This document shows positions 3,660 to 26,448 of a stretch of DNA of 37,204 nt, piece after piece (position 1 is the stretch's first letter; each line of letters begins with the position of its first letter). This DNA comes from Moniliella sp. 'wahieum'. Lineage: Eukaryota. The position numbers and the translations under genes were made by a program. The stretch covers positions 930,001-967,204 of the forward strand of contig RSEE01000014.1 in the NCBI GenBank assembly GCA_003971905.1. Reading direction: 5' to 3'. The notes beneath the pieces were generated by a model that did not search any database, was not told the origin of the DNA, and saw only the letters and a list, made by a program, of their open reading frames with translations.

Positions 3660-3992
3660 GATGGCGATGCAGGCGCCACGCGGTGGCGCTGACGCGTGAG
3701 GGGTGACGGGTGACGGGTGCGGGCACAACCGCCGTGCTGCCGCTGCGGCCGCAGCCACGACGCAGCACGCAGGCAGCGCGGCCGGCATGTCGGCGGGCGT
3801 TCGCAGCGGGCGTTCGCATTGCAGGGGGCCTGGCGTGCCGCCCAGCCGGGGCGGTGGATGCTGTGTGGCCGCCCGACCTGCACCCAGGCTACAACCCACC
3901 CGCCCCGCCGCCCGCACCGCCCCCACCCCCCGCCGCCGCCTCGGCCGTGGCAGAGCGCGCGGCCCCCCAGCCCACACCGCACCCTCCCTCCC

Positions 3993-4152
3993 TGTCGGCC
4001 TCGCTACTACCACAGAATGTGAGCACTGAACGTCGTATTTGACTAAGAAGCTTCTGCGACTGACTCGTCCAGAAGACTGGTGCGAGCTCGGAAGGAATGA
4101 AAGCTGACTCACGTGACTCAGGGTCCGCGCGGTCCTAGGACGGATGTCAACA
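3993..4152 (-). repeat. 3' LTR of element 1
   Basis: TGTCGG...TCAACA on + strand; near-identical to 8889-9048; polypurine tract adjacent. Confidence 0.96.
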
Positions 4153-4160
4153 CCCCCGCT
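4153..4160 (-). other. Polypurine tract of element 1
   Basis: Minus strand AGCGGGGG immediately precedes the 3' LTR. Confidence 0.75.
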
Positions 4161-4175
4161 GACCGGAGGGCCCAG

Positions 4176-7100
4176 TCATGTGGACTGGATCCATCTCTCG
4201 ACGCGGAGTTGAGCAAGATGGCTTGTCAGGGCGGGACGGCCGAGAGGCTTGGTGAGGACGTCCGCTGGGTTCCTTTCGCCGGGGATGTGTACAAGTATGG
4301 CCTCGCCCGAGTCCACGTGTTGCCGTACATTGTGGTACCGGATCTTCAGCTCTCGGAGCTTGCCGGTGCTGCCAAATTTGTGGGCGAGATCGACGACAGA
4401 CTTATTGTCGCAATACCAATGAATGGGTGTACCCTCGCCGATGGCCCCAAGCTCGATCATGATGTTCTTGACATAGTTGGCGTCAACCAGTCCATCATAT
4501 CCTGCCGTATATTCGGCGGCGGCGGTACTGGTAACGCTCTTCGGCTGAAGAATGGATCGCCACGACACCGGCACACCGTACACCATCAGTAGGCATCCAG
4601 ATGTGGAGCGTGCCTGGATGGGATCTCCCGCCAAGTCGGAATCTGTATACAGCGCAATGGCCGGTGCATCTGATGTTGGGGTCAACCTCAGGCCCTTTCC
4701 TCGAGTATGGTACAGGTAGCGAAGGAAGTCATCGACTGCTTGATGATGCTGCTGCGATGGGTCGGCAGCGGCTCTGCTGAGGGCCGTGATAGCGAAGAGG
4801 GAGTCAGGCCGGCCCATTCGTGCAGCCCACAGTCCCGATCCGATCTTCCCCTGATATGCCTTGCGCAAGGCTGGGAGGGATGGGGGTTCAGGGTCGGCAC
4901 GGGGCGGTATCATCCGTACGGGATGTGGGAGAGTCCGGATCCACGGGGCTTTGATGTGGTGCTTTGCCACCACTTCCTCGATGAACTTTGGTTGGCTCAG
5001 GTACAGCTCCCCACCGATCCGATCGTATTGGCATCCCAGGTGGTAGTGAAGGGGACCGTTACCACGAACATCAATGTGTGTGTTTTCTCGGCCATAAACT
5101 CCTCGTACTTTTGGTGTGACTTGCATGCGAGGAGCAGATCGTCGGTGTGGACCGCCAGGAGGATCTGCTCACCCGTGGTGCAGCGCGCACGAACAAGCAG
5201 GGCTCGGTCAAGCTTTGCGTGAAGCCGAGCTTGTCACGCAGCAGGTTCCGGATGTATCGTGCCCAGTTTGCTCCGCTCTGATGTAGCCCGTATAGACTCT
5301 TCTTGAGACGCCACACGCGACCACCCGCTTCGGGGAAGTAGGGGGGTGGGCGGATGTAGACTGCTTCTTCGAGGGGGGCGTTCAGGTACGCTGCATTGAC
5401 GTCCGCCGAGAAGAGGCCAAACTTATACTTCTCGGCCAGCACGACGAGGGTCAGGATGGCAGGTGTGCGCACCGATGGTGCGAACGTCTGGCCCCAAGTC
5501 TCGGCCGATTGTTGGTGTCCGCCCGCGACAAAGCGCGCGCGGTGGCGCAGGAACCGGCCCTCGGCGTCCGTCTTTGTGGTGATGCGCCATAGTCCTATGA
5601 GGATTTGTGCACCCGGTGGTGGGTACGTAGCCTCGTAGGTGCCGTATCGCGCGAGTGTGGCCACCTCGTCGGCCATAGCCTGCTTGACCATGGCAAAGGA
5701 GGGTGAGTCTCGAGACCCTTGAGCGTCTTGGGAGCGAGGGGTACGCCATCCTTGGTGAGCTGAACCGTGTCCGGGTGGATGGGTGCGCTGAGAGCAGTCA
5801 TGGCGGCGTATTCGGGAGGTTGAACTGTGTCGGCAAACGGGGGGGCGGATGTGTCAGGTAGGGGGCGGGCGATGCCGATCTCTGGTGCGGCGCAGTGGGG
5901 CGTGGCGGCTGCAGCACGAGCATGGTAGGTCGTGTCGGTGGGGTCGTCAGCGATTGGGAGTGTGTGCAGGTCGAGGGAGGTGCGGGTGGTGCGCTGGCGG
6001 AGGGGGTAGCGGCGCGGAGGGGGGGTGGTGGTGGGAGCGGGTGTCTGGGGTGTGGCGGCGGTTCGGGGCATGGGTGCTGCCGCGGCTGGCGGAGTAGGGT
6101 TAGCGTCTTTTTCACTGTCGATTTTAATTTGAGGTGATTTGGAGATGTCGGGTGGGAAGTGGTCGGGGTGGAGATGGGGGTAGATGGCGTTGCCCCATTT
6201 GTACGGTTTCGACCAGCGGTAGGTGAAGGTACCCAGGGATGGTTGGTATGTGGCGAAGAGCCATCCCTTTGATCCGCGCTGATGGTGGTATCCTACCAGC
6301 ATACCTTCCTCTGCCCGCGCGCTGAGCTTGTGCTCGCGGCGTGACTCGGGCAGATGGAGGTATGCAACGCGGCCAAAGGGTTGCATCGGTAACGAGTATG
6401 CGTGGCCTTTGTATCGCTCAAATCGCGATTTGTTGTCTTCCCCGGATGTTTTGAGTGGCATTTGGTTTTGGGTGAAGCACGCAGCGTGGAGGCTGTGTTC
6501 CCACCAGTCCGACGTCGGAAGACCTGTACCCAAGAGCAACTGCCTTGCACGAGTCGTTATGGTTCGGATGGCACGCTCAGCCACACCGTTGCTAGCACTC
6601 TGCCCCGGGATTGTCCGTTCTGACGTGATGCCTTGCTCGTCCAGAAAAGGTTGCAGTGCGCTTGTCAATTCGGGGGCGTTGTCCGTGCGCAAAGTCCGCA
6701 GCAGTCTGTCCGGGCCGTAGCGTTGCTCCCGCAATATGAGGTTCCGCAGTTCCTTCGTTGCAGCGCCCTTTGTCGGGATCGCTGTGGTGAAGACGTACCG
6801 CGTGAAGTCATCAACGGCGACGAGGGCGTATCCGTGCCCCATGCCGGTTACCCGGGGGAGGTCTACTACGTCGACGTGGAGGACCTCGAAAGGTCTTTTG
6901 GATCGGAGGCGGTCCCGGCTCGGATGGGGCGATGCTGTCGCTAGTGCCACCGCGCATGTTGGGCAATCCCACTCTGAACGACAGAGGGAGATATGCTTGG
7001 CTGTGACGCGGAGGCCTGCGGTTTCCGATCGTGTAAGCCAGGGGAGGAGGTCGATGGCTGCGTGGTTCCAGCGTTTGTGGGCTTTAGAGACGTGGTCCAG

Positions 7101-7586
7101 GGCCAGGGATGCTGCGAGGGAGTTTGGGGTTGAGGGTGGGTCGGCCGGTTTGATCGGTTTGGTCGCCATGGCCCGCAGGGGTGTGGGTGGCGTTCGCGGG
7201 TTGTGTAAGATCGTGAATTGATAGTCACTGCCGGTTACTTTTCGTAGGGTGGATCCTGGGTTACCAAGCCAGATACCCTTCTGGTGTGGGGCGAAGTATG
7301 ATGCGATTCCGGTGTTCGACAGGTGTGCTACACTGACGAGATTTCGGCTGAAACGGGGCATGTATAGGCTGTTGGGGAGTTTTATCTCCATTTGGTGTCC
7401 TCCTAAGCATCGGATACGGATTGTGGCCGTGCCTCGTCCTTCCGCCTTTACATGTGTCCCGTTAGCAACCTCTATCTCGTCGTCGCAAGGGGTCATGGAT
7501 GTGAAGACGGATTTGTCTTTCCAAATGGATGGGAATGCCCCACTGTCATATAATGCCCGGATGATTCGCATTTCGCCCCCGAGTTC
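4176..7586 (-). CDS. pol: Element 1 pol (protease, integrase, RT, RNase H); split by apparent frameshifts near 5700 and 5090-5190
   Basis: Protease LYDSGA. Integrase HKRWNH..CPTC, LHVDVVD, RTDNAPE, SNGVAERAIRT. RT RHRARFVAGG, ADVNAAYLNA, LKKSLYGLHQSG, AVHTDDLL. RNase H YTDSDLAGD, AEY, NPADVLTKPL. Confidence 0.95.
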
Positions 7587-8834
7587 CTAGTAGTCAGCTG
7601 TGCCCGCATCAACGTCAATCACTTCAGACTCGGGAGAGCTCGCTCTCTGAGCGACGTGAGCGTTGGCTCGGCCTGGGTTGCGCGGAGGGACAACAGGTTT
7701 ATTAGACGTCGCGCTGCGCCAGGGTTGGTTGGTGCGGTCTTGCCCCTTGGTCTTTGTGTCCGCGAGGTTGTCGTCGCCGGCTTTGCCCCCGCTGGAGTTT
7801 TTTCCCCCGCTGGTGGGTCGTCCCCCGCTGTCGGGTCGAGTCCAAGGCGTTCCTCCGTTGACCGGCTTGCCTCCGTTTCTCTTCCTTTCTCCACCGGGAT
7901 ACGTGGCGGCTGGTATGTCCATCACGGCCTGCCGTAACTTGTCTAGACTCGAGCGCTCTTCACGCTGGCGAATGCTCATGTCGCGTAAGCCGAGTAGGAT
8001 CCCAGTGCGTTCCTGCTCTTCCGTAAGTGGGATGCCCGCTCGCGTCAGGCTTGCACTGATCTCTTCCATGTAGTCGAGGTAGTCTCGACCCGATCGGTTT
8101 CCTTGGTCGGCCGAAAAGTAGCGAATGAGTAGAGGCCCTCTGTTTGCGGTAGGCGTATATCCATACCGCTGACGCAGCATGTTCAGCGTGTCCTGGGTGC
8201 ATGATATTTCGTGGTGGGTGCGGATCGTCCGGAAGAGGGTTGACGGCATGGCTTCCCTAAGAAGGTTGTGCAAGCGTCTGTCGAGGTCCTCGGTGAAGTA
8301 GCGGGAGCTGCGACCATTCTGGACGACGTCGCTTGCGTGGGGGTGGGCATCTGTTATCGCGAAGAGAAATTCGTCTTCCCAAGCGCTGTAGGCGGACGGG
8401 TCTTTGTTCAGATCAGGCCACTTGATATTCTTGGTGGGAGACTCGCGTAGTGATCTGTAAAGGTCGTACTCGGGTCGCGAGGCTGCGCCTGTAGGTGCCC
8501 CCAAAGTTGCGTTGGGTTGAGTTTCCATTTGGTGGATGTTTTGCACCACAAAATTCGTAGCCCGTCGAACCCAGTTTGTCGTGATAGACGTAGGTTCGTC
8601 CTTCCATCCAAGCCACTCGGCTCTGTCGTGTATAGCTCTGTTGATCTTCTCTTTAACGACATCGATGTCGTTCGTCTTCTTGAACCACAGGTGCGCTTCG
8701 GCGCAAAGCATCATGAGTTCCTCGTTGTCGGTGCCAATCGGTGGCGGATCGCGACCGGTTGGTGTCCAGTAATCGCGCTTGTTCACCATTGTGGTGTCGC
8801 TGACCGAGAGATCGGTGTTAGCGTTGGCGCCCAT
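7587..8834 (-). CDS. gag: Element 1 Gag (no CCHC knuckle; basic Gly/Arg-rich C-terminus), ends in TAG in frame with pol
   Basis: Uninterrupted ORF from MGANANTD. Copia-gag-like segments YSAWEDEF, LNMLRQRYG and DYLDYMEEISASLTRAGIPL..ILLGL. Located between the 5' LTR and the protease. Confidence 0.88.
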   Translation of the reverse strand: MGANANTDLSVSDTTMVNKRDYWTPTGRDPPPIGTDNEELMMLCAEAHLWFKKTNDIDVVKEKINRAIHDRAEWLGWKDEPTSITTNWVRRATNFVVQNIHQMETQPNATLGAPTGAASRPEYDLYRSLRESPTKNIKWPDLNKDPSAYSAWEDEFLFAITDAHPHASDVVQNGRSSRYFTEDLDRRLHNLLREAMPSTLFRTIRTHHEISCTQDTLNMLRQRYGYTPTANRGPLLIRYFSADQGNRSGRDYLDYMEEISASLTRAGIPLTEEQERTGILLGLRDMSIRQREERSSLDKLRQAVMDIPAATYPGGERKRNGGKPVNGGTPWTRPDSGGRPTSGGKNSSGGKAGDDNLADTKTKGQDRTNQPWRSATSNKPVVPPRNPGRANAHVAQRASSPESEVIDVDAGTADY

Positions 8835-8888
8835 GGTTGTGGGTGTAGTTTTGGCCAGCTCAGGGATGAGCAGATAAGGATGTAACTC

Positions 8889-9048
8889 TGTCGGCCTCGC
8901 TACTACCACAGAATGTGAGCACTGAACGTCGTATTGGACTAAGAAGCTTCTGCGACTGACTCGTCCAGAAGACTGGTGCGAGCTCGGAAGGAATGAAAGC
9001 TGACTCACGTGACTCAGGGTCCGCGCGGTCCTAGGACGGATGTCAACA
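8889..9048 (-). repeat. 5' LTR of element 1
   Basis: Direct repeat of 3993-4152, followed by TSD CTCCC. Confidence 0.96.
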
Positions 9049-9085
9049 CTCCCGACCACCACTCCACCCCCCCCCGTCTCTGGCC

Positions 9086-11350
9086 ATGGCTTCTGCCGCC
9101 GCGCCAGACCCCGTGCCGCCGGCCCAGGGCAGCCCCGCCGCGCCTCCGCCCGTCACCCTCCAAGGCCAGGAGGACCCCCACAACTGGAGCGAGCGCAAGC
9201 GCTGGGGCATGGTCATCCTCGTCTCCCTCATGGGCTTCATATCCCCCCTCGGCTCCTCCATCACCGTCGCCGGATCCAAGTCGCTGGAACAGACCATGGA
9301 CCTGGCCAGCCGTCTGCTGGCGACCGTGCCCGTTTCCACCTACCGCTCGGTACGCGTCTCCCTGCCTTGTTGTGCTTCGTCTGCCGAGCCGCAGCGCGTA
9401 CTGACCTGGAAGCGCTTCTCCGTCTAGGCCTCGCCTTTGGCCCCTTTGTCTTTGCCCCGGCCTCGGAGCTGATTGGCCGCCGGCCAGTTTACGTGGCAAC
9501 GGCGGTTATCTTTGTAGCCTTCAACGCCAGCACCGCTGCCGCGCCCAACTACCCCGGCCTTGTTATTCTCCGTTTCCTCGCGGGCATATTTGGTTCGACA
9601 GGACCTACACTAGGCTCGGGTGTGATTGGTGATATGTTCCAGCCCCGCTTCCGGGGCCGTGCGGTCGCCATCTACGGATTGGGACCATTACTGGGACCCG
9701 TGGTGGGGAACCTGATCAGTGGGTACATTAGCCAAGCCACCCATTCGTTCCGCTGGCTGTTGTGGACCTTGACAATTGTATGTTGGCCCTGTCCCATTCC
9801 ATTGCGCATGGCGTACTCACCCTACCATCGTCTCCTTTCAGATCTCCGGGGCCGTGATGGGGGCGATTGTGCTTTTCCTAGAGGAGACGTATGCATTTGT
9901 CCTGATTGAGCGCAAGCGGCAGCGCCTTGCTGGCTACGACGTCTCGTGGCAGGCCCGTGCTCAGCATTCGGTCCATACCATGCTTCGCCCCTGGATTTGG
10001 CACCCATCGCCCGCAGCCCAACAAAAGTTCCGCTTGGCCATGACCCGGCCCTTCCGATTACTGTTTTGCAACCCCATCTGTGCCATCTTCAGTCTGTATC
10101 AAGGCTTTGTCTATGGTGTCATGTTTATCTTTCTCACTCAGCACCCCTTGCTCTTCCAACAGCGCAGTGACGTTTCCTCCTCCGGCTCGGGCGCCACCAG
10201 TACTGGCTCCGTGTCGTCCAACCATCTTGCCTCCGTCACGCGACGACAGACCCCGTCTTCCTCATCTCAGGCTTCCGCTCACCATGACCGCATTGGTTCC
10301 GACCACACCGATCCCAACTTGCATCGTCTTCCCTCCTATGGCTGGTCCATGGGTAATGCTGGTCTGAGCTATCTCGGTTTGGGACTCGGTTTCTTGATTG
10401 CTATGCTGCTCAATGCGCTCCTTTCCGATCTCCTCTACCGTCGCCTCGTCGCCACAGACGGAGAACTGCGATGGGCCCTGTTAAACCCTCGGATCGGGGT
10501 AGATCAACTGGCCCAAGAGACCGAGCTGCGTGCTGCTACCCACGAACTGTTGCAGGGCAGTCGGCCCGCCTCGGTTCGTTCGCAGCAGCCCCCTCCTCCT
10601 TCCTGTCCTCCTCCCCCATGTCCTCCTCCCTCATGTCCTCCTCCCTCATGTCCCCCTCCCTCCTGTCCTCCTCCCTCCTGTGCCCCTCCCCCTCCGTCTC
10701 TCACCACACGGGTGGGGGTCGCACATGCCGTTCCCCCGCCATATGGGGCGTCCTCTCCCCCCTCGCACTCGGATACGATCCAGGCCGCTGAATCTGAGCC
10801 TATTCCCAATGCCGAATCTGGCATGAACCCCATCGACGTGCCCGAGAAGAGTGACGATCCTCCCCTATCGGAAAAGGGGAGTGATGTGGAGAAGCAAGGA
10901 GCCGTGATGCCGCTTGCGACGCCGCCTGCACCTACGCCCCGCAAGGGTCGGCCTGAATACCGTCTTCCGTTCTGTCTGCTGGGCATGCTGATTCTTCCCT
11001 GTGGGCTTCTGCTCTTTGGCTGGAGTGCCTCGGCCAAGACGCATTGGTCTGTGCCGCTAGTCGGCTCGCTCGTCACGGGCGCCGGGCTAATCCTGTGCTT
11101 CCAGACGATTCTCATGTACTTGGTCGATGCGTTTGTGCCCTACAGCGCATCGGCCACCGCATGCTCTGTCCTGACCCGCTCCGTGCTCGCAGCGGGCTTC
11201 CCCTTGTTTGCCGAGTACCTCTATGCGGCCCTGGGCTATGGCGGCGGGTCGTCTCTGTTGGCGGGCATTGCGCTGTTGGGCGCGCCCGTGCCGGTGATTA
11301 TGTTTGTTTATGGGCCGCGGCTTCGTACCCGGTTTGCGTTTACGGGCTAG
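9086..11350 (+). CDS. MFS drug:H+ antiporter, DHA1 family (TPO1/FLR1/MDR1-like); introns ~9350-9427 and 9778-9841
   Basis: EDPHNWS, GLAFGPFVFAPASELIGRRPVY, ILRFLAGIFGS, GVIGDMF..RFRGRA, GPLLGPVVG, FLEETYA, RPFRLLF, PEYRL, YLVDAF..YSASA, RSVLAAGFPLF. Introns have GT..AG ends and CTGAC/CTCAC branch sites. Confidence 0.94.
10589..10696 (+). repeat. 15-bp coding minisatellite encoding (PPPSC)n in the MFS transporter
   Basis: About 6-7 copies of cctcctccctc(a/c)tgt; protein PPPPSCPPPPCPPPSCPPPSCPPPSCPPPSCAPPPPS. Confidence 0.9.
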
Positions 11351-13086: not shown

Positions 13087-13618
13087 TGAGTGGTAGTACC
13101 CTGCCTCCTTTTCGTCATTTATCGCCTACACCCATCGCTCCTGGCCGTGACTAGTGACTGCGCTAGTAATCGTGATCCCTTCAAACAAGAGGGGGGGCGA
13201 GGCGACCGGTAGTGCTATGGGGGCTCTATACGTACCAGCGTAGCATGCAGTTGTGCCAAGACCCAGGGGGACCAAAGGTCGGGAGGCGCGTGCTGCACGT
13301 GACGCGTGATGGCCGATGCAGATGCGGCAGGAGAGAAAAGCGGCGGATGCGTTTCAAACAAAGTGTGGGGGGGTGTATATACGGCGGTGAAAAAGGCACT
13401 GCACTACCCGACCGCTGCCGTCTGCCCCGCCTTTCGGGGAGTACCGGTTCCCGGGCTATGAATGGCAGGCTTGTAAGTATATTGGCTGCAATCTCTATTA
13501 CCTTCCCTCGGCCGGTAGTGCGCGGGCGCTGGACCTTGGCTGGTTCGCCACGCCCACCTGACGGACATCGACGAGTATACACGATACTAAGCCCCCTTAC
13601 CGGCCCACCACACAATTC

Positions 13619-13964
13619 TGCTAGACTGCAGCTGGGAAACGCTATGGGCAGCACGAGAGATAAGCTTCAAGGCGTGCAAGAAGGCAGGGCAGTTAGCCAC
13701 AAGTCCTTCAAGCAAGCTCGATTGCGAGGAGGACAACACAAGAACAGGGAAAGCAGAGGCGCACCTTCAAGGCGTGCAAGAAGGCAGGGCAGTTAGCCAC
13801 AAGTCCTTCAAGCAAGCTGAAGGGAAGAAGATAAGAGTCAAGCAAGCAAGTCGGAACAGACAAAGGGGTGGCGTTGGCCACGCAAGGTTCGAATCACCCG
13901 AACCAGCGAGCATCACCGATCCATTGGAGAGAGTGCAGGTGAACCCTAGCACTACCCTCTAGCA
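13619..13964 (-). repeat. Element 2 3' LTR (contains a 54-bp internal duplication at 13665-13718 and 13765-13818)
   Basis: 7-bp perfect inverted termini; minus-strand PPT GAGGGGGGC at 13965-13973. Confidence 0.96.
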
Positions 13965-14222
13965 GCCCCCCTCGGTGAGCTCGCCAGGCCAAAGGTGGTG
14001 AGGGCCAAAGAACATCGAGACGAAAGGGAGAAATGATTCACGGCCGCGAGCGCCAAACATGTATTTGTTCTGGTGAGCAGGAACTGGTAAAACAAACGCA
14101 TCGTGGATGCGAGAAAAAAAAAACCCAGTCCCGCTGCGATTTAATTTGTGTAGATGAGAAAGCCAAGACGAAAGAAAAGAAACCGGTCTTGAGAGAAAGA
14201 AGGGCTCCGGAGCCCAACGTGG

Positions 14223-17200
14223 TTAGCTGCCACCGCCACCACGCAGACCAAGTTGCTCCGCCCTAGCGTCGACTGCGCGGCCCGAGATCGTCTTGGTGAA
14301 CATGTCAGCCGGATTGTGCACCCCGCCACTTGCGCCAAGAGGAGCACGTTGGCGGCAATGAGTTCCCTCAGAAAGTGGTGCCGCAAATCGATGTGCTTCG
14401 AGCGCTTGTGAATGATGTGGCCCTCGGCCAGCTTGCGGGCGCCGAGAGAGTCAGTGAAGATGGTGGGCACCACCTCCTCATGTGGTAAGATTTCCCGGAG
14501 CAACAGCCTGAGCCACACTGCTTCCTTGGCCGCATGAGCCAGGGCAACATATTCCGCTTCGGTGCTCGAGAGTGTGACCATGAGTTGCTGCCGCGACGAC
14601 CAAGAAACCAAATTGCCAGCCACAAAGAAAACATACCCAGAGGTCGAACGCCGGTTCGCCGGGCACCCCGCCCAGTCGGCATCGCTAAACCCATTTAGCA
14701 ACGGCGCATCAGCGTGAAAGGAGAAATGGAGACCTTTTCCCGGTGAGCGACGAAGAAAGCGTAGGACCTGAAACGCGGCATTGAAGTGATCTGGTCCCGG
14801 GTTAGCCATGAAGCGACCACACACGCCCACAGCTTGAGCAATGTCAGGGCGGGTGTTAAGGGCAGCGAAGCCAAGGTGACCAATAAGCCCCGCATACTGA
14901 CGACGATCCGCATCACTGGCCTGGCCCGAGAAAGGTAGTAGATGCGCCGGGCGAGCAGGTCGAGGGCTGGGAGGTGAGGTTAGCTTTTCCCCATAATGCG
15001 CAAGCACACCCTCCACGTATCCCCGCTGGCTGAGGAAGCAGGTACGGGCTGCTTGATCATACTCCACCTTCACCCTAACAAGTAGCTGACAGGGCCGCCA
15101 TCAGTCACGGGCAATTGCTTGGCAAATTGGCGCTTGGCCTCTTGCAAGCGCGTCAAGTCGGCACAGGCCCAAACAGTATCATCCACAAAGCAGGCCACCA
15201 GAACCAAAGCACTGCCCTGGCCGCGAAGATATACACACGGTTCCCCTTGCAACCGGTGGTAGCCGAGACGTAAGAACACCCCATCCAGATGGTCGTGGAA
15301 AAGCTTGCCCCCCTGGCGTAGGCCGTAAACACCCTTGAGCAACTTCCAGCACTTGCCCTCCGTGTCAGGACCCCTGAAGCCAGGCGGGATGGCCATGTAA
15401 ACCTCAGTGTCAACTGCCGCATGTAAGTATGCCGCCTCCACATCCATTTGATGGACATGCAGGCCAAAACGACACGCCAAGGAGAGCAAGACCCGGATGG
15501 TCTCACTCCTGACAACGGGAGCAAAAACCTCGTCAAAGTTCACTCCTTGAACCTGGGTCCGTCCATCGGCAACGAGACGGGCTTTGTGCTTGGTAACCTG
15601 ACGAGTGTCATCCAGCTTCGCTTTAAACACCCACTGGCACCGGAGAACAGGAACATTGGCAGGCCGATCCACGAGCTCAAAAACCGCGAGTTCCCGCATC
15701 TTGTTCACCTCCTTAACCATGGCAGCATGCCAGACGGGCCAGTCTGGTCGCTGGCATGCCTCTTGAAACGACAGGGGTTCAAGCAGCTCGCCATCGGCGC
15801 TACGCTCCTCTTGTACGCGAAAGGCCACGCCCTGTGCTGTGAGCGCTAGTGTGTCCTGCACCACGGCAACTGCATGCAGGGCCTGGGTCGCGTAGGCTCC
15901 GCCGGTGGCCACCGGACCATGCAACATCCCGGCAGCAAAATGGGCAAGGCCAAGAGTGACCTGCGCAGCAGCAGCCCCCTGGGACAGGAGCCAGGTCCAC
16001 AGCATCAAGTTCGACTGCCAGCTCCACAGCAAGAGCCGATCGAGCACGCTTCCTGGGCGCGTCAACGACTGCTGGTGGATCAGCTTCACGCTCACGCTTG
16101 GTCACGTCGAGCATGCGCCGGAACTCCGCGCGGGCGATGTCCCTCCCGGGTGTTGTAGGGGACGGTGGGGTGGTAAGGCCCGGCGGTCCGGGTGGGTGGA
16201 CGCCGCGGAGGAAAGGAGGGGAATGTCACCAGCAATACCATCTTCACCCACTGCTGGGATAGGGTTGAGCAAGGGGATCAAGGGGAATATCACGTACATA
16301 ATCGTCCTGGAGGCGCGGCTGCTCCTCCAGCCGACCCGACTCTCCCTCAGCAAAATGCACATCGTAAACTGTCACGATACGGTCCAACACCTCGACCCAA
16401 ACACGATGACCTTTGACTTGGCCCGGCAGGTCACTGTAACCCAGGTACACCCCTCGAACGGCACGTGGAGCGAGGTATTTGCCGCTGAGTTCACTAGCTT
16501 GTGTCCAGGCACGTCGATTCCCACCATGCAGCACAACCCAAGCAGTGCAACCAACACCCGCAGAGCAGACAGAGTGGGGGGTTGGCCCGTCCACAGTTCA
16601 TACGGCGTCTTCCAGGCATGCGCTTTGCTGGCGAGGCGGTTGTGAATGTATCCGGCGTGCGTCGCAGCATAGGGCCAAAACCGCCCCGGCAACTGGGCGT
16701 GGTGCATGAGACAACGGGACAACTTCTCAATCTCTTGGTTCATTCGCTCTGCGACGGCGTTCCCTGTGGATTCTTGAGTAGGAGAAGCTGTCAAAAGGCA
16801 ACCTGAACGAGCAGCCCATGTCTTGACCTCATTAGTCCATAATTCGCCTTGGTCCACACGTAATTCTTTTGGATGTTTTTCTGTTTCGCGATGAATTAAG
16901 GTAGCCCACTGAATGAGGCAGGGTGCAGCACTGGCCTTGTCCTTCAACGGCCAGACCCAGGTCATGCCACTGTAATTGTCCACCACGACAAGAATGTAGT
17001 GCCAAGGTACCTTGTGCTGCAAAGCATCTGGCTCATTCCAAGGGCCCACCACATCAGCTGACACCAGGTCGAGGCGGGCCAAGATGAGACGAGAATCATT
17101 CCCCCGCCGGGCTCGCGACTTGGCAGTACGGCAAACATCGCAGGAAGAAAACTCAGGAAACGAAGGCGGCCAAGATCCCCCTTTGCTGGCCGTAGACGTG

Positions 17201-17930
17201 TGTTTCACGGCCTCAGCGCCGGCATGGCCAAGCCGAAGGTGCCACAACCAAGCTGACGCGCGCGTCAAGTCGGGGGCTGGAGTCTCAGCTACAGGCCGAG
17301 GAAAGAGTTTGTCCCGCAACTGGTCATCAGGATCATTCAAAGAGTCATCCTCAGTCTCCGAGAAATAGGGAACGCTAATAACTGCACCTTCCACCTGGCA
17401 GTCATCCGTGCACACTACCATTTCCGCTCTGGGGTAGGTGCCCTTCAGTGGAACCCCGAGGGAAGTGCCATTCTTGGTGAAAAACACCACCTCATGGTCC
17501 CGAAATAGCGTACTCCCACCCGTGGCTGCCACTCCTTGGGTACTGAGGAGATTAGTAATGAGGTCAGGTACCAGCATAACCCCATTGAAGTGAAGCGCCT
17601 CCCACTTGCGCTGGGATGGATCATATTGTAGGAGGCGTAAGGTGCCATTCACCCCAGCGACCGGCAGTTTCTGCCCCCCTGCAGTGACTACCGAGGTGGG
17701 ACGGGAGGGAGGCACGAAGTTTTTCGCCAAGCTTGCATCATTGACAAGGCGATGGGAGGCTCCGCTGTCAAAGATAAATTCAGCCGAGCGAGGTGTGGAG
17801 CAAGGTGGAGATGGGATGTTGTTAGAAGAAGAAGGGGGGGAAGAAGGGGCGCGCGTCCTGGGCGAGTGGTAAACAATGCGCTCAACAAGTCCTCTGCGAG
17901 GATAATGAGCGCCTCACCCCGCGCGCACCC
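14223..17930 (-). CDS. pol: Element 2 copy A pol (PR-IN-RT-RH), with several apparent frameshifts
   Basis: FIFDSGASH; WHLRLGH..CDVC; SADVVGP; RVDQGE; NAVAERMNQ; KHKARLVADG; HQMDVEAAYL; KGVYGLRQGG; CFVDDTV; FSDADWAG; SSTEAEY; KHIDLRHHFLRE. Confidence 0.95.
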
Positions 17931-19872
17931 CTATTCGATATCATCAAACCCCGCGGCAGGCTGCCCATCCTCCTCTGAGACGGAGAGATCCATTACCGTT
18001 AAGCCGTGCGCCAAGGCTTGAAGCACACGCGCAACAGCATGCTGCTGTGGGGGCGCACGGTTGGTATTCGTGTTCCGTCCTGCCCCAGGGAGGGTGCGAT
18101 TCCATCCTGACGTACCACGGGTAGAAATGCGGTTGTCCTGACGCGGCGCCGGGCAGTTGGCAGCGATATGTCCAGGCTGGCGGCAATTCCAGCAGACAGC
18201 CGCAACCCCCATCGCTCGTAGCTGCGCTGCCAGAGACATGTCTGCGTTCCCAAGCAGTCCCGTGGTCCCCGAATTAACGGGAGGGGTAGAGACATCAACA
18301 GCCAAAGATTCAACCGTAGGTACCGAGATGGACGCAATCCGGTTAGATTCCATGACGAAGTTGGCCCGGGCCAACGACTGCAAGTCCCCCAAGACAGAAT
18401 TGACGTGTGCCACGGTCACACGCTGTCCGGGAGGTAGCCCCGCGAAAATCAGCGGCCGATACGAATCACCACGCCGGAAAAGGGCTTCCAAACTGGACAT
18501 CACACGTGCAGGGTCCCAGGTGGAGTACCCCAAGAGGGTCAGAACTTGGATGGAATCGAGCCAGCGCGTCAGGGCCTTAGAAGCCGGTTCTGCATTGGGA
18601 TCCCATTCCGTCTGGTGCACCGACAGCTGTAGTTCAGAGACGCTGGGCGTAGAAGAAGACGTACTTCCGCGAACAAGCACGACAAGAAGTCCGGAACCGA
18701 GTCAAGAATCCCGGGAGACGTTGTGGTCGCGAGGCGCGAAATGTAGGACGCGAGGGCAGGCGACACCAGCGTCATCAGTTGCGCAACGATCTGAGAGTGC
18801 ACCCCCGGCGGCACCTCCATTGTTCCGGCCAAGATCGAAGCAAAGTCGTGATAAATGATGGCCAAACGAGTACGGAGGCCCTGCAGCCAGCGAAGAACAG
18901 CCAACGGGTCATTTTGCTCGGGACCATGCACCAGAGGTGTCAGAGGCGAGGAAGCAAAAGCACGCGTCATACGCTTCGCCAATGTCATAACATCGAAATT
19001 CATGTGTCCCTGGACTAGACGCGGTGCATCCACCCACTTGGGCTGCTCCTCGATAGTCACCGTGCGAGCAGACGGGGCCCGCTCGCTGATACGCTCCACA
19101 GAAGGGACGGTCACCGACGGCAAAGCAGCCGACGGGTCATGAGCAAAAGCCATACCACTGTCAGTCGGAACAGAACCTTTCGGGGTGCCCAACAGGTCAA
19201 TACGTGCACTGACTCAGTACTGACTCGAGCGGTCAGAAGCTGAAGTTCATCGTCAGATTCGGTAGTTGGAGCTGGGTCCTCTGGGTCGAGGAGCATGTCG
19301 CGCATGGCACGACGCTTCTGAGCAACACGATGTTTGGAAGCCTTATTGTCCTCGTACAGTTTCCAAGCATTACGCACTGCCTTGAGATGGCGAAAGATTG
19401 CCTTCTGCAAGTCCTCAAAGGTGGAGAAGCGATGAGACTTGGTATAAAAGACGTAGGCAACATAGAAGTCGGTCGGTGTGTGAGCAAGAAGTTTTCGCCA
19501 CCATGGCCCTTATTGTAGTCGGTAATGATATCAGCCACAATAGAGTCCTTGTCTGCCACTGCAGAACCAGGGGCCGGGGAGGCTATGCCCTTCCCCGGGA
19601 TACCCCAGCGGCGAATGGTAGGAATGACGTCCTGGATGAAATCGGCAGCGACATCCACGTCAACGTCCCACAGGATGGTGTTCAGTCCAGACCAAGCACC
19701 AATCGTGTGCTTGATGCGAAAAGCCGGCCATTTCGCTGTCTTGCCAGGAGCCATCCCGTCTTGAGAGTTGGGGTTAAACTCGCCACGACGAACATACGCT
19801 TCCACAATGTCATCAGGCGAGGAAACCGGGTGCGCAGAATGCGCAGAGGCAGAGAGAAGATAAGGGCGACAT
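17931..19872 (-). CDS. gag: Element 2 copy A Gag (~650 codons, CCHC zinc knuckle, long N-terminal extension); apparent frameshifts
   Basis: ATG lies in the PBS (GGTTATG). CWNCRQPGHIAANC knuckle. Ends GFDDIE-TAG at 17931-17933. Confidence 0.85.
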
Positions 19873-19876
19873 AACC

Positions 19877-20221
19877 TGCTAGACTGCAGCTGGGAAACGC
19901 TATGGGCAGCACGAGAGATAAGCTTCAAGGCGTGCAAGAAGGCAGGGCAGTTAGCCACAAGTCCTTCAAGCAAGCTCGATTGCGGAGGACAACACAAGAA
20001 CAGGGAAAGCAGAGGCGCACCTTCAAGGCGTGCAAGAAGCAGGGCAGTTAGCCACAAGTCCTTCAAGCAAGCTGAAGGGAAGAAGATAAGAGTCAAGCAA
20101 GCAAGTCGGAACAGACAAAGGGGTGGGCGTGGCCACGCAAGGTTCGAATCACCCGAACACCAGCGAGCATCACCGATCCATTGGAGAGAGTGCAGGTGAA
20201 CCCTAGCACTACCCTCTAGCA
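19877..20221 (-). repeat. Element 2 shared central LTR
   Basis: Flanked by the PBS of copy A on one side and the PPT of copy B on the other; no TSD. Confidence 0.96.
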
Positions 20222-20477
20222 GCCCCCTCGGTGAGCTCGCCAGGCCAAAGGTGGTGAGGCCAAAGAACATCGAGACGAAAGGGAGAAATGATTCACGGCC
20301 GCGAGCGCCAAACATGTATTTGTTCTGGTGAGCAGGAACTGGTAAAACAAACGCATCGTGGATGCGAGAAAAAAAAAACCCAGTCCCGCTGCGATTTAAT
20401 TTGTGTAGATGAGAAAGCCAAGACGAAAGAAAAGAAACCGGTCTTGAGAGAAAGAAGGGCTCCGGAGCCCAACGTGG

Positions 20478-23400
20478 TTAGCTGCCACCGCCACCACGCA
20501 GACCAAGTTGCTCCGCCCTAGCGTCGACTGCGCGGCCGAGATCGTCTTGGTGAACATGTCAGCCGGATTGTGCACCCCCGCCACTTGCGCCAAGAGGAGC
20601 ACGTTGGCGGCAATGAGTTCCCTCAGAAAGTGGTGCCGCAAATCGATGTGCTTCGAGCGCTTGTGAATGATGTGGCCCTCGGCCAGCTTGCGGGCGCCGA
20701 GAGAGTCAGTGAAGATGGTGGGCACCACCTCCTCATGTGGTAAGATTTCCCGGAGCAACAGCCTGAGCCACACTGCTTCCTTGGCCGCATGAGCCAGGGC
20801 AACATATTCCGCTTCGGTGCTCGAGAGTGTGACCATGAGTTGCTGCCGCGACGACCAAGAAGAAACCAAATTGCCAGCCACAAAGAAAACATACCCAGAG
20901 GTCGAACGCCGGTTCGCCGGGCACCCCGCCCAGTCGGCATCGCTAAACCCATTTAGCAACGGCGCATCAGCGTGAAAGGAGAAATGGAGACCTTTTCCGG
21001 TGAGCGACGAAAGCGTAGGACCTGAAACGCGGCATTGAAGTGATCTGGTCCCGGGTTAGCCATGAAGCGACCACACACGCCCACAGCTTGAGCAATGTCA
21101 GGGGGGTGTTAAGGGCAGCGAAGCCAAGGTGACCAATAAGCCCCGCATACTGACGACGATCCGCATCACTGGCCTGGCCCGAGAAAGGTAGTAGATGCGC
21201 CGGGCGAGCAGGTCGAGGCTGGGAGGTGAGGTTAGCTTTTCCCCATAAGCGCAAGCACACCCTCCACGTATCCCGCTGGCTGAGGAAGCAGGTACGGGCT
21301 GCTTGATCATACTCCACCTTCACCCTAACAAGTAGCTGACAGGGCCGCCATCAGTCACGGGCAATTGCTTGGCAAATTGGCGCTTGGCCTCTTGCAAGCG
21401 CGTCAAGTCGGCACAGGCCCAAACAGTATCATCCACAAAGCAGGCCACCAGAACCAAAGCACTGCCTGGCCGCGAAGATATACACACGGTTCCCTTGCAA
21501 CCGGTGGTAGCCGAGACGTAAGAACACCCCATCCAGATGGTCGTGGAAAAGCTTGCCCCCTGGCGTAGGCCGTAAACACCCTTGAGCAACTTCCAGCACT
21601 TGCCCTCCGTGTCAGGACCCTGAAGCCAGGCGGGATGGCCATGTAAACCTCAGGTGTCAACTGCCGCATGTAAGTATGCCGCCTCCACATCCATTTGATG
21701 GACATGCAGGCCAAAACGACACGCCAAGGAGAGCAAGACCCGGATGGTCTCACTCCTGACAACGGAGCAAAAACCTCGTCAAAGTTCACTCCTTGAACCT
21801 GGGTCCGTCCATCGGCAACGAGACGGGCTTTGTGCTTGGTAACCTGACGAGTGTCATCCAGCTTCGCTTTAAACACCCACTGGCACCGGAGAACAGGAAC
21901 ATTGGCAGGCCGATCCACGAGCTCAAAAAACCGCGAGTTCCCGCATCGTTCACCTCCTTAACCATGGCAGCATGCCAGACGGGCCAGTCTGGTCGCTGGC
22001 ATGCCTCTTGAAACGACAGGGGTTCAAGCAGCTCGCCATCGCGCTACGCTCCTCTTGTACGCGAAAGGCCACGCCCTGTGCTGTGAGCGCTAGTGTGTCC
22101 TGCACCACGGCAACTGCATGCAGGGCCTGGGTCGCGTAGGCTCCGCCGGTGGCCACCGGACCATGCAACCATCCCGGCAGCAAAATGGGCAAGGCCAAGA
22201 GTGACCTGCGCAAGCAGCCCCCCTGGGACAGGAGCCAGGTCCACAGCATCAAGTTCGACTGCCAGCTCCACAGCAAGAGCCGATCGAGCACGCTTCCGGG
22301 CGCGTCAACGACTGCTGGTGGATCAGCTTCACGCTCACGCTTGGTCACGTCGAGCATGCGCCGGAACTCCGCGCGGGCGATGTCCCCTCCCGGGTGTTGT
22401 AGGGGACGGTGGGGTGGTAAGGCCCGGCGGTCCGGGTGGGTGGACGCCGCGGAGGAAAGGAGGGGGAATGTCACCAGCAATACCATCTTCACCCACTGCT
22501 GTGGGATAGGGTTGAGCAAGGGGATCAAGGGGAATATCACGTACATAATCGTCCTGGAGGCGCGGCTGCTCCTCCAGCCGACCCGACTCTCCCTCAGCAA
22601 AATGCACATCGTAAACTGTCACGATACGGTCCAACAACCTCGACCCAAACACGATGACCTTTGACTTGGCGCCGGCAGGTCACTGTAACCCAGGTACACC
22701 CTCGAACGGCGTGGAGCGAGGTATTTGCCGCTGAGTTCACTAGCTTGTGTCCAGGCACGTCGATTCCCACCATGCAGCACAACCCAAGCAGTGCAACCAA
22801 ACACCCGCAGAGCAGACAGAGGGGGGGTTGGCCCGTCCACAGTTCATACGGCGTCTTCCAGGCATGCGCTTTGCTGGCGAGGCGGTTGTGAATGTATCCG
22901 GCGTGCGTCGCAGCATAGGGCCAAAACCGCCCCGGCAACTGGGCGTGGTGCATGAGACAACGGGACAACTTCTCAATCTTTGGTTCATTCGCTCTGCGAC
23001 GGCGTTCCCTGTGGATTCTTGAGTAGGAGAAGCTGTCAAAAGGCAACCTGAACGAGCAGCCCATGTCTTGACCTCATTAGTCCATAATTCGCCTTGGTCC
23101 ACACGTAATTCTTTTGGATGTTTTTCTGTTTCGCGATGAATTAAGGTAGCCCACTGAATGAGGCAGGGTGCAGCACTGGCCTTGTCCTTCAACGGCCAGA
23201 CCCAGGTCATGCCACTGTAATTGTCCACCACGACAAGAATGTAGTGCCAAGGTACCTTGTGCTGCAAAGCATCTGGCTCATTCCAAGGGCCCACCACATC
23301 AGCTGACACCAGGTCGAGGCGGGCCAAGATGAGACGAGAATCATTCCCCCGCCGGGCTCGCGACTTGGCAGTACGGCAAACATCGCAGGAAGAAAAATCA

Positions 23401-24169
23401 GGAAACGAAGGCGGCCAAGATCCCCCTTTGCTGGCCGTAGACGTGTGTTTCACGGCCTCAGCGCCGGCATGGCCAAGCCGAAGGTGCCACAACCAAGCTG
23501 ACGCGCGCGTCAAGTCGGGGGCTGGAGTCTCAGCTACAGGCCGAGGAAAGAGTTTGTCCCGCAACTGGTCATCAGGATCATTCAAGAGTCATCCTCAGTC
23601 TCCGAGAGAATAGGGAACGCTAATACTGCACCTTCCACCTGGCAGTCATCCGTGCACACTACCATTTCCGCTCTGGGGTAGGTGCCCTTCAGTGGAACCC
23701 CGAGGGAAGTGCCATTCTTGGTGAAAAACACCACTCATGGTCCCGAAATAGCGTACTCCACCCCGTGGCTGCCACTCCGGGTACTGAGGAGATGTAGGAT
23801 GTAATGGTCAGGTACCAGCATAACCCCAATATTGAAGGAAGCGCTCCCACTTGCGCTGGGATGGATCATATTGTAGGAGGCGCGTTAAGGTGCCATTCCC
23901 CAGCGACCGGCAGTTTCTGCCCCCCTGCAGTGACTACCGAGGTGGGACGGGAGGGAGGCACGAAGTTTTTCGCCAAGCTTGCATCATTGACAAGGCGATG
24001 GGAGGCTCCGCTGTCAAAGATAAATTCAGCCGAGCAGGTGTGAGCAAGGTGGAGATGGGATGTTGTTAGAAGAAAGAAGGGGGGGAAAGAAGGGGGGCGC
24101 GCGGCGAGTGGTAAACAATGCGCTCAACAAGTCCTCTGCGAGGATAATGAGCGCCTCCCCGCGCGCACC
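20478..24169 (-). CDS. pol: Element 2 copy B pol (many small indels relative to copy A)
   Basis: Same motifs as copy A in fragmented frames, e.g. NPADMFTK, FSDADWAG, CFVDD, WHLRLGH. Confidence 0.9.
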
Positions 24170-26101
24170 CTATTCGATATCATCAAACCCCGCGGCAGGC
24201 TGCCCATCTCCTCTGAGACGGAGAGATCCATTACCGTTAAGACGTGCGCCAAGGCTTGAAGCACACGCGCAACAGCATGCTGCGTGGGGGCGCACGGTTG
24301 GTATTCGTGTTCCGTCCTGCCCCAGGGAGGGTGCGATTCCATCCTGACGTACCACGGGTAGAAATGCGGTTGTCCTGAGCGGGCCGGGCAGTTGGCAGCG
24401 ATATGTCAGGGCTGGCGGCAATTCCAGCAGACAGCCGCAACCCCCATCGCTCGTAGCTGCTGCCGCTGCCAGAGACATGTCTGCGTTCCCAAGCAGTCCC
24501 GTGGTCCCCGAATTAACGGGAGGGGTAGAGACATCAACAGCCAAAGATTCAACCGTAGGTACCGAGAGGACGCAATCGGTTAGATTCCATGACGAAGTTG
24601 GCCCGGGCCAACGACTGCAAGTCCCCAAGACAGAAATGACGTGTGCCACGGTCACACGCTGTCCGGGAGGTAGCCCCGCGAAAATCAGCGGCCGATACGA
24701 ATCACCACGCCGGAAAAGGGCTTCCAAACTGGATCACACGTGCAGGGTCCAGGTGGAGTACCCCAAGAGGGTCAGAACTTGGATGGATCGAGCCAGCGCG
24801 TCAGGGCCTTAGAAGCCGGTTCTGCATTGGGATCCCATTCCGTCTGGGCACCGACAGCTTGTAGTTCAGAGACGCTGGGCGTAGAAAGAAAGACGTACTT
24901 CCGCGAACAAGCACGACAAGAAGTCCGGAACCGAGTCAAGAATCCCGGGAGACGTTGTGGTCGCGAGGCGCGAAATGTAGGACGCGAGGGCAGGCGACAC
25001 CAGCGTCATCAGTTGCGCAACGATCTGAGAGTGCACCCCCGGCGGCACCTCCATTGTTCCGGCCAAGATCGAAGCAAAGTCGTGATAAATGATGGCCAAA
25101 CGAGTACGGAGGCCCTGCAGCCAGCGAAGAACAGCCAACGGGTCATTTTGCTCGGGACCATGCACCAGAGGTGTCAGAGGCGAGGAAGCAAAAGCACGCG
25201 TCATACGCTTCGCCAATGTCATAACATCGAAATTCATGTGTCCCTGGACTAGACGCGGTGCATCCACCCACTTGGGCTGCTCCTCGATAGTCACCGTGCG
25301 AGCAGACGGGGCCCGCTCGCTGATACGCTCCACAGAAGGGACGGTCACCGACGGCAAAGCAGCCGACGGGTCATGAGCAAAAGCCATACCACTGTCAGTC
25401 GGAACAGAACCTTTCGGGGTGCCCAACAGGTCAATACGGTGCACTGACTCAGTACTGACTCGAGCGGTCAGAAGCTGAAGTTCATCGTCAGATTCGGTAG
25501 TTGGAGCTGGGTCCTCTGGGTCGAGGAGCATGTCGCGCATGGCACGACGCTTCTGAGCAACACGATGTTTGGAAGCCTTATTGTCCTCGTACAGTTTCCA
25601 AGCATTACGCACTGCCTTGAGATGGCGAAAGATTGCCTTCTGCAAGTCCTCAAAGGTGGAGAAGCGATGAGACTTGGTATAAAAGACGTAGGCAACATAG
25701 AAGTCGGTCGGTGTGAGCAAGAAGTTTTCGCCACCATGGCCCTTATTGTAGTCGGTAATGATATCAGCCACAATAGAGTCCTTGTCTGCCACTGCAGAAC
25801 CAGGGGCCGGGGAGGCTATGCCCTTCCCCGGGATACCCCAGCGGCGAATGGTAGGAATGACGTCCTGGATGAAATCGGCAGCGACATCCACGTCAACGTC
25901 CCACAGGATGGTGTTCAGTCCAGACCAAGCACCAATCGTGTGCTTGATGCGAAAAGCCGGCCATTTCGCTGTCTTGCCAGGAGCCATCCCGTCTTGAGAG
26001 TTGGGGTTAAACTCGCCACGACGAACATACGCTTCCACAATGTCATCAGGCGAGGAAACCGGGTGCGCAGAATGCGCAGAGGCAGAAGATAAGGGCGACA
26101 T
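24170..26101 (-). CDS. gag: Element 2 copy B Gag
   Basis: 411-aa ORF MSPLSSASAH... from 26101, continuing in shifted frames to QPAAGFDDIE-TAG at 24170-24172. Confidence 0.85.
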
Positions 26102-26105
26102 AACC
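26094..26105 (-). other. Primer-binding site of element 2, resembling the internal (half-molecule) tRNA-iMet type; also at 19865-19876
   Basis: GGTTATGTCGCC directly follows the LTR; the canonical half-tRNA-iMet PBS begins GGTTATG(A/G)GCC. Confidence 0.7.
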
Positions 26106-26448
26106 TGCTAGACTGCAGCTGGGAAACGCTATGGGCAGCACGAGAGATAAGCTTCAAGGCGTGCAAGAAGGCAGGGCAGTTAGCCACAAGTCCTTCAAGC
26201 AAGCTCGATTGCGGAGGACAACACAAGAACAGGGAAAGCAGAGGCGCACCTTCAAGGCGTGCAAGAAGGCAGGGCAGTTAGCCACAAGTCCTTCAAGCAA
26301 GCTGAAGGGAAGAAGATAAGAGTCAAGCAAGCAAGTCGGAACAGACAAAGGGGTGGCGTTGGCCACGCAAGGTTCGAATCACCCGAACCAGCGAGCATCA
26401 CCGATCCATTGGAGAGATGCAGGTGAACCCTAGCACTACCCTCTAGCA
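26106..26448 (-). repeat. Element 2 5' LTR
   Basis: TGCTAGA...TCTAGCA followed by TSD AATTC. Confidence 0.96.

Follow-up and report, generated by a model that had tools for sequence, protein, structure and literature searches.

How is Pol made by a Ty1/copia retrotransposon whose gag ends in a stop codon that lies in frame with pol? The question is raised here by element 1, a 5.06-kb Ty1/copia copy on the minus strand of a 37,204-nt stretch of DNA from the basidiomycete Moniliella sp. 'wahieum' (GenBank assembly GCA_003971905.1, contig RSEE01000014.1, forward-strand positions 930,001 to 967,204; hereafter the window, numbered from its first letter). As assembled, gag and pol of element 1 share one frame and are separated by exactly one stop codon, a UAG; the 39-nt spacer that leads from this stop to the protease may itself carry insertion or deletion (indel) errors. 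Comparison with other copia sequences suggests that gag, UAG and pol in this order are probably the native layout of the element's family. Low-level readthrough of this native UAG into a Gag-Pol fusion has, in our judgement, about an even chance of being the way in which Pol is produced.

The UAG at the gag-pol junction

On the minus strand, the junction opens with GCT GAC TAC TAG GAA CTC, continues through GGG GGC GAA ATG CGA and then ATC ATC CGG GCA TTA, and reaches the protease at TAT GAC AGT GGG GCA; its translation is ADY*ELGGEMRIIRALYDSGA. The TAG, at positions 7589-7587, is the sole stop between the gag ATG at 8834 and position 5598 and, when all pol frames are followed, the one stop in about 1,540 codons. 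Counting codons past the UAG, the sixth is an ATG and the 14th is the Asp of the DSGA protease motif. A sequence-only reading of this DNA had placed an in-frame TAG at 7587-7589, 14 codons ahead of the protease Asp, with an ATG six codons past the stop, in an element whose long terminal repeats (LTRs) differ at 1 of 160 positions. Both junction positions are borne out by the minus-strand reading, and the LTR count is borne out once the repeats are trimmed to TG...CA. The same reading spoke of long clean open reading frames (ORFs) on both sides of the stop, which describes gag well, open as it is over 415 codons, but describes pol only in part: pol stays open over its first 663 codons, beyond which come four one-base frame breaks. 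The parts of element 1, all on the minus strand, are as follows.

9049..9053, minus strand: upstream copy of the target-site duplication GGGAG, the 5 bases preceding the 5' LTR being the same as the 5 bases past the 3' LTR
8889..9048, minus strand: 5' LTR, TG...CA, 160 nt, found by repeat comparison, with 1 mismatch to the 3' LTR
7590..8834, minus strand: gag ORF, 415 codons, from ORF translation
7587..7589, minus strand: in-frame UAG in the context UAC UAG GAA CUC, read from the sequence
7573..7577, minus strand: run of five G (G5), 6 nt past the stop, read from the sequence; a miscount in this run would shift the frame of pol
7569..7571, minus strand: first AUG past the stop (sixth codon), a possible restart site, read from the sequence
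5700..7586, minus strand: first frame of pol, with the protease (Asp codon 7545-7547), integrase core, SH3-like domain and linker, from Pfam and from tblastn with the relative P0002
5116..5721, minus strand: second frame of pol, with the N-terminal part of the reverse transcriptase (RVT_2), from Pfam
5078..5200, minus strand: third frame of pol, with the active-site segment of the reverse transcriptase (RT), whose motif HTDD is common to P0002
4197..5084, minus strand: pol in the first frame again, with the C-terminal part of the RT and RNase H, from tblastn with P0002 (71% identity)
4147..4196, minus strand: last pol codons in a further frame, ending ...SGQRGC and TGA (4147-4149), a C-terminus as in P0002
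3993..4152, minus strand: 3' LTR, 160 nt, found by repeat comparison
3988..3992, minus strand: downstream copy of the target-site duplication GGGAG, a perfect 5-bp match to the upstream copy

The domain content identifies element 1 as a Ty1/copia LTR retrotransposon. Pfam finds Pol_BBD (the protease, 8.4e-12), rve (5.7e-10) and SH3_retrovirus (6.8e-08) on the 663-codon pol ORF and RVT_2 (1.1e-25) on the next pol frame, which is the copia domain order, and the RNase H part is the portion 71% identical to P0002. The LTRs were first found as 167-nt direct repeats with 2 differences; trimmed to TG...CA, they are 160 nt each with 1 mismatch. LTRs this similar, bordered by a 5-bp duplication without a mismatch, mark a recent insertion that can have decayed but little.

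The gag ORF is unbroken over its 415 codons (1,245 nt), counted from the first ATG after the 5' LTR (8834). Its assignment as gag is less secure than that of pol. The product has a predicted helical part that extends to about residue 305, followed by a basic tail rich in Gly, Arg, Lys and Pro that has no CCHC knuckle. An AlphaFold2 (AF2) model of the protein is all-helical over residues 38-305 and disordered beyond, at low confidence (pLDDT 39). A search of gag against Pfam returned no family at E values up to 10, and no homologue of near its full length was found. When aligned by HMMER and BLAST, single-ORF copia polyproteins match from as far upstream as about gag residue 183 and continue across the stop. 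A feature search of gag in Atlas pointed to Ty1 TYA Gag at 0.90, which we treat as a lead.

Evidence for a probably native stop

We consider the UAG probably native because it is the sole stop in about 1,540 codons, because it falls in the linker between gag and protease and because two other copia lineages have stops there. The region around it, the gag tail and linker, is poorly conserved, and all nine single-ORF copia polyproteins that we examined, chosen from 117 relatives since their matches extend into gag, align straight across the stop position. A stop placed at random would fall in the gag tail or linker with a chance of about 8% (about 120 of about 1,540 codons, by the widest definition) and within 30 codons of the protease with a chance of about 2%.

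The first of the other lineages lies in the same window. Elements 2 and 3 belong to a second, unrelated copia family and lie in tandem at window positions 13597-26417, in the order LTR-internal-LTR-internal-LTR, with LTRs located as follows.

near 13597-13932: first LTR of the array of elements 2 and 3
near 19855-20187: second LTR of the array
near 26084-26417: third LTR of the array

These elements are about 30% identical to P0002, through which alone their identity to element 1 was gauged. Their gag, which bears a CCHC motif, ends in ...GFDDIE-TAG-G (GAA-UAG-G) in both copies, about 50 codons ahead of an FDSGAS protease motif; the frame relation of UAG to protease is unreadable here, as the two copies disagree. 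The second lineage comes from metagenome contigs, among which a search with the element 1 pol matched only two loci, L001 and L002, at 26% identity. They represent a complete copia element with 126-nt LTRs and are 97% identical to each other. In both copies a gag with two CCHC knuckles is followed by TGA-CTAG and then by pol, all in one frame. Like element 1, both lineages are copia with a gag stop just upstream of the protease; they differ from it in what accompanies that stop, which is UAG-G and an RNA hairpin of about 85 nt in elements 2 and 3 and UGA-CUAG in L001 and L002, whereas element 1 has neither. The UGA-CUAG context has been reported to favour readthrough, in the passages of 10.1101/2022.12.06.519325 that treat it.

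A separate feature of L001 and L002 concerns their pol. At L001 7839-8155 and L002 2993-3309, the integrase and RT ORFs lie in the same frame, but each copy has about 316 nt with stops between the two. This interruption could be an intron or a defect that the two copies share.

The position of the stop must also be set against the possibility that the TAG is a private nonsense mutation, in which case the family would have one gag-pol ORF, like most copia, and this copy would be dead. A single ORF is indeed the majority state: among 117 relatives, all with an alignment that includes the start of the protease, 89 carry at least 200 residues fused ahead of it. A TAG is also one substitution away from several sense codons, no readthrough signal was recognised in element 1 (see below), and the 1 LTR mismatch per 160 nt translates into roughly 15 expected internal substitutions, with a very wide range, so that one nonsense change is not unlikely. 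A mutation of this kind would, however, have had to hit the gag tail or linker, or even the last 30 codons before the protease, at the low chances given above; there is no second stop in element 1, and elements 2 and 3 as well as L001 and L002 have a stop at the same place. On balance we consider a private nonsense mutation unlikely. Among the same 117 relatives, 11 have their first residue close behind the position that corresponds to the stop, at a distance of about 10 residues or less or of up to 26, and 7 of these 11 are at least 970 residues long; single ORFs are thus the rule, yet their comparison indicates that split gag and pol forms exist in the wider clade.

Any statement about frames in this window has to reckon with the quality of the assembly. 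Past its first 663 codons, the pol frame shifts four times, within 5700-5721, within 5116-5200, within 5078-5084 and at about 4196, as placed by three-frame translation and by tblastn with P0002. Each break is what the loss of a single base from the window would produce, and they lie at short runs or repeats; no further stop was found in the pol frames followed. The break at about 4196 is contradicted by a contig from sequencing run X1, which has one extra base behind 4196; with the X1 frame, the pol terminus is ...SGQRGC, exactly as in P0002. The four breaks are most likely assembly errors and not biology, because elements 2 and 3, near-identical tandem copies, are set apart by 65 indel events. 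In the alignment of elements 2 and 3, 46 of the 65 gap events are single-base; there are 69 mismatched columns, and among the first 40 most are clustered at the misaligned end or beside gaps. Homopolymer runs are discordant between the two copies in 9 of 58 cases at length 4, in 2 of 13 at length 5 and in 3 of 6 at length 6 or more. Judged from this pair, the assembly errors in the window are indels, and isolated substitutions are rare. For this reason, frame breaks in the window say little about biology, and the TAG itself is likely to be real and unlikely to be a base-call error.

The same indel errors bear on the frame relation between gag and pol, which depends on 39 nt that include the G5 run (7573-7577). 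If the spacer had lost a base, say in this run, then pol would really lie in the +1 frame, overlapping the end of gag, and the in-frame relation would be an artefact that conceals +1 frameshifting of the Ty1 type. Such an error would be in keeping with the rest of the element, where all four detectable breaks fit one missing base each and the one at about 4196 is contradicted by the short-read X1 contig and by the C-terminus of P0002; it would also be in keeping with the discordant runs of length 5 (2/13) and length 4 (9/58) in the tandem copies, and the frame leading into pol stays open over 15 codons ahead of the G run. Element 1 has about 4 breaks in 4.7 kb, however, a rate at which a 39-nt spacer should contain only about 0.03 to 0.1 errors, and gag is unbroken over 1,245 nt. 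Furthermore, the 120 nt ahead of the stop contain no in-frame X XXY YYZ heptamer, and no shift site like those of Ty1 or Ty3 was spotted by eye in the overlap. The GC content by codon position fails to discriminate between the frames in the gag tail. We regard a concealed +1 frameshift as very improbable, and the risk that a miscalled length has put pol out of frame with gag as small.

Candidate routes from gag to pol

With gag, one UAG and pol in the same frame as the native layout, the most likely route to Pol would be low-level readthrough, a proposal that we rate as evenly poised. Most ribosomes would halt at the UAG and release Gag; a small share would decode the UAG with a near-cognate tRNA and continue into a Gag-Pol fusion, and the size of that share would set the ratio of Gag to Pol.

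Several results weigh against this proposal. The stop is known from a single copy. Neither the window nor the scan index, searched for look-alikes by DNA, protein or place, holds another copy of element 1, and a library of 1.84 billion representatives yielded one close relative, P0002 (55-58% identity), which starts within the integrase and is silent on the junction. In viral contigs there was no match for the element 1 pol protein or for P0002. No RNA run was listed as carrying the sequence, and the one DNA run so listed, X1 (share 0.14), has contigs on 4058-4837, 6524-6716 and 6979-7231 only; no piece departs from element 1 by more than 4 letters and 1 gap, and the stop lies outside all of them. 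Runs X2 and X3 yielded just a 33-base piece that looks like a chance match. If the four frame breaks in pol were real mutations, then the copy would be decaying and a nonsense mutation would be more plausible. The nearest precedent, Tca2, is no encouragement either: its junction alone directs no readthrough in Saccharomyces cerevisiae, according to the portion of PMC2194720 devoted to it.

The remaining points on that side come from the RNA around the stop. The sequence-only reading had taken the UAG for an amber-readthrough signal that sets the ratio of Gag to Gag-Pol, and had noted a possible weak pairing downstream of it (CUCGGG with UCCGGG). As in Moloney murine leukaemia virus (MuLV), the UAG is followed by G, in UAG GAA. 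The wider context, UAC-UAG-GAA-CUC, matches neither CAR-YYA nor UGA followed by C, CU or CUAG, the readthrough motifs being those given in the pertinent passages of PMC2194720 and 10.1101/2022.12.06.519325. Four folds that begin at the stop or beyond it, spanning 76, 87, 120 and 149 nt, gave z scores of +1.46, 0.04, +1.59 and 0.23, with 103 to 193 of 200 shuffles at least as stable. The CUCGGG/UCCGGG pairing does occur in the minimum-energy fold, but folds that are no better than shuffles (z 0.04 to +1.59) lend it no weight. Of 300 shuffles, 150 did as well as or better than the best H-type pseudoknot placed 3-12 nt past the stop, and 186 did so for the best hairpin starting in the same interval. 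Folds upstream of and across the stop were equally unremarkable (z -0.01, 0.30 and 0.19), and Rfam returned no match on element 1 at E values up to 1. With no known context, no hairpin or H-type pseudoknot that beats shuffles and no Rfam match, the amber-readthrough signal of the sequence-only reading is not upheld. What survives of that reading is the layout, which is probably the element's own; the part in which a readthrough signal sets the ratio is unsupported.

The fold method is able to detect such a signal where one is present, because the hairpin of elements 2 and 3 stood out in the same kind of analysis. Directly past their UAG-G lies a nested GC-rich hairpin of about 85 nt (17846-17933 and 24072-24172, minus strand), with energies of -48, -42.6 and -50.7 kcal/mol in three windows, z scores of -4.3 to -4.85 and none of 200 shuffles as good. 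As a candidate readthrough cassette it is far stronger than the junction of element 1. If readthrough does occur in element 1, then it would do so with no recognisable stimulator, either at a low level or through a non-canonical signal, by analogy with what was concluded for Tca2.

That no readthrough signal was found also speaks for a route in which Pol is made without decoding the stop at all. Ribosomes could terminate at the UAG and reinitiate at the AUG 15 nt downstream, or a separate transcript could start at the junction; in either case Pol would be unfused to Gag. The AUG is the sixth codon past the stop, and the Pfam protease model begins only 3 residues ahead of the Asp, so that a product started at this AUG keeps the whole modelled domain. 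P0008, a distant relative, starts at the position equivalent to that AUG. In Tca2, the gag-pol junction holds a minor promoter and the local sequence supports no readthrough, although Tca2 Pol is reported to come from the LTR-driven gag-pol RNA (statements from the part of PMC2194720 on this element). Upstream of the stop in element 1 there is no significant structure of the restart type (z -0.01 and 0.19), and no motif resembling UGGGA was spotted by eye in the 110 nt upstream of the stop. Restart after an ORF as long as 415 codons is rare in eukaryotes, which counts against reinitiation, and a Pol detached from Gag would have to enter particles in some other way. Taken together, these considerations make an unfused Pol rather unlikely in our view.

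A related and more far-reaching proposal is that the element 1 lineage passes its UAG-G without a leaky context or a downstream structure, through an undescribed bypass signal or through reinitiation at the AUG 15 nt on. Termination-reinitiation is not known for any LTR retrotransposon, although no literature search was aimed at it. We think it unlikely that this broader proposal is right. If it were, then two different solutions would coexist in one host, with the neighbouring copia family using a strong hairpin. In any case, gag-UAG-G occurs in no fewer than two neighbouring copia families of this genome, in one of them backed by a strong hairpin and in the other by no feature that we could recognise, and element 1 together with elements 2 and 3 provides a natural pair for reporter assays of what UAG bypass requires in fungi.

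Precedents and further features of the locus

In-frame stops between gag and pol have been described in MuLV, Tca2, SIRE1, Tj1, Tosmo1-3 and Tcry1, as covered in parts of PMC2194720 and 10.1101/2022.12.06.519325. The gag-UAG-pol arrangement of element 1 is therefore a rare but already described layout, and on present data element 1 is simply a further example of it. Its one unusual trait is that no recognisable signal accompanies the stop. Both the example and the trait come from one copy, in an assembly prone to indel errors.

In MuLV, a UAG, a purine-rich spacer and a pseudoknot give about 5% readthrough (PMC2194720 and 10.1101/2022.12.06.519325, in the passages on this virus) and a Gag to Gag-Pol ratio of about 20:1 (PMC2194720, likewise). 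MuLV resembles element 1 in having UAG-G, gag and pol in frame and the protease shortly past the stop. It needs its purine-rich spacer and pseudoknot, however, neither of which was found in element 1, and it is a retrovirus with a different domain order.

Among copia elements, the nearest precedent is Tca2 (pCal) of Candida albicans, a Ty1/copia element in which, as in element 1, gag and pol form one frame with a single stop. According to the sections of PMC2194720 on its junction, the stop of Tca2 is a UGA, behind which lie a purine-rich spacer of 8 nt and a potential pseudoknot, whereas element 1 has a UAG, and neither spacer nor pseudoknot was found there. The Tca2 work concluded in favour of a 'non-canonical bypass', in the wording of that source. 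The host of Tca2 is an ascomycete yeast and that of element 1 a basidiomycete, and the likeness between the two elements is one of layout and not of sequence comparison.

The fission yeast elements Tj1, Tosmo1-3 and Tcry1 offer a different parallel. They too are fungal LTR retrotransposons with an in-frame gag-pol stop and no large RNA structure, and the stop of Tj1 is essential for transposition, as reported in the portions of 10.1101/2022.12.06.519325 that concern them. In contrast to element 1, which is copia with UAG-GAA, they belong to Ty3/gypsy and have their UGA in a strictly conserved 8-nt GAA-UGA-CU, by the same account. No basidiomycete copia with a gag UAG turned up in literature searches that covered open-access text only, and the matched passages of PMC3248453, PMC5445492, PMC6875170 and PMC12810828 contain nothing on copia gag stops.

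Several further observations concern element 1 itself. Its 3' end is very compact: the pol ORF crosses the polypurine region, and its TGA is made by the first bases of the 3' LTR (TGTTGA; window 4147-4167). The RT active site (about 5125-5140, minus strand) has HTDD where copia usually has Y/F-x-DD. The same HTDD occurs at residues 669-672 of P0002, while four more distant relatives that we checked have YVDD or FVDD. Because the only close relative has it too, HTDD looks like a trait of the lineage and not like damage. At the primer-binding-site position directly past the 5' LTR (8865-8888, minus strand), the sequence is by eye unlike the usual site for the 3' end of initiator tRNA-Met, and the window contains no tRNA genes.

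Two other genes of the window deserve brief description. Element 1 abuts the start of a gene for a major facilitator superfamily (MFS) transporter on the plus strand (9040-11350; Pfam MFS_1, 3.4e-21). Because the ORF of this gene begins within the LTR edge, the insertion may affect its promoter or 5' end. The basidiomycete host is reflected in a mitochondrial-carrier exon at 31807-32484, for which the top matches with a name, 42-51% identical, come from Ustilaginomycotina and Pucciniomycotina.

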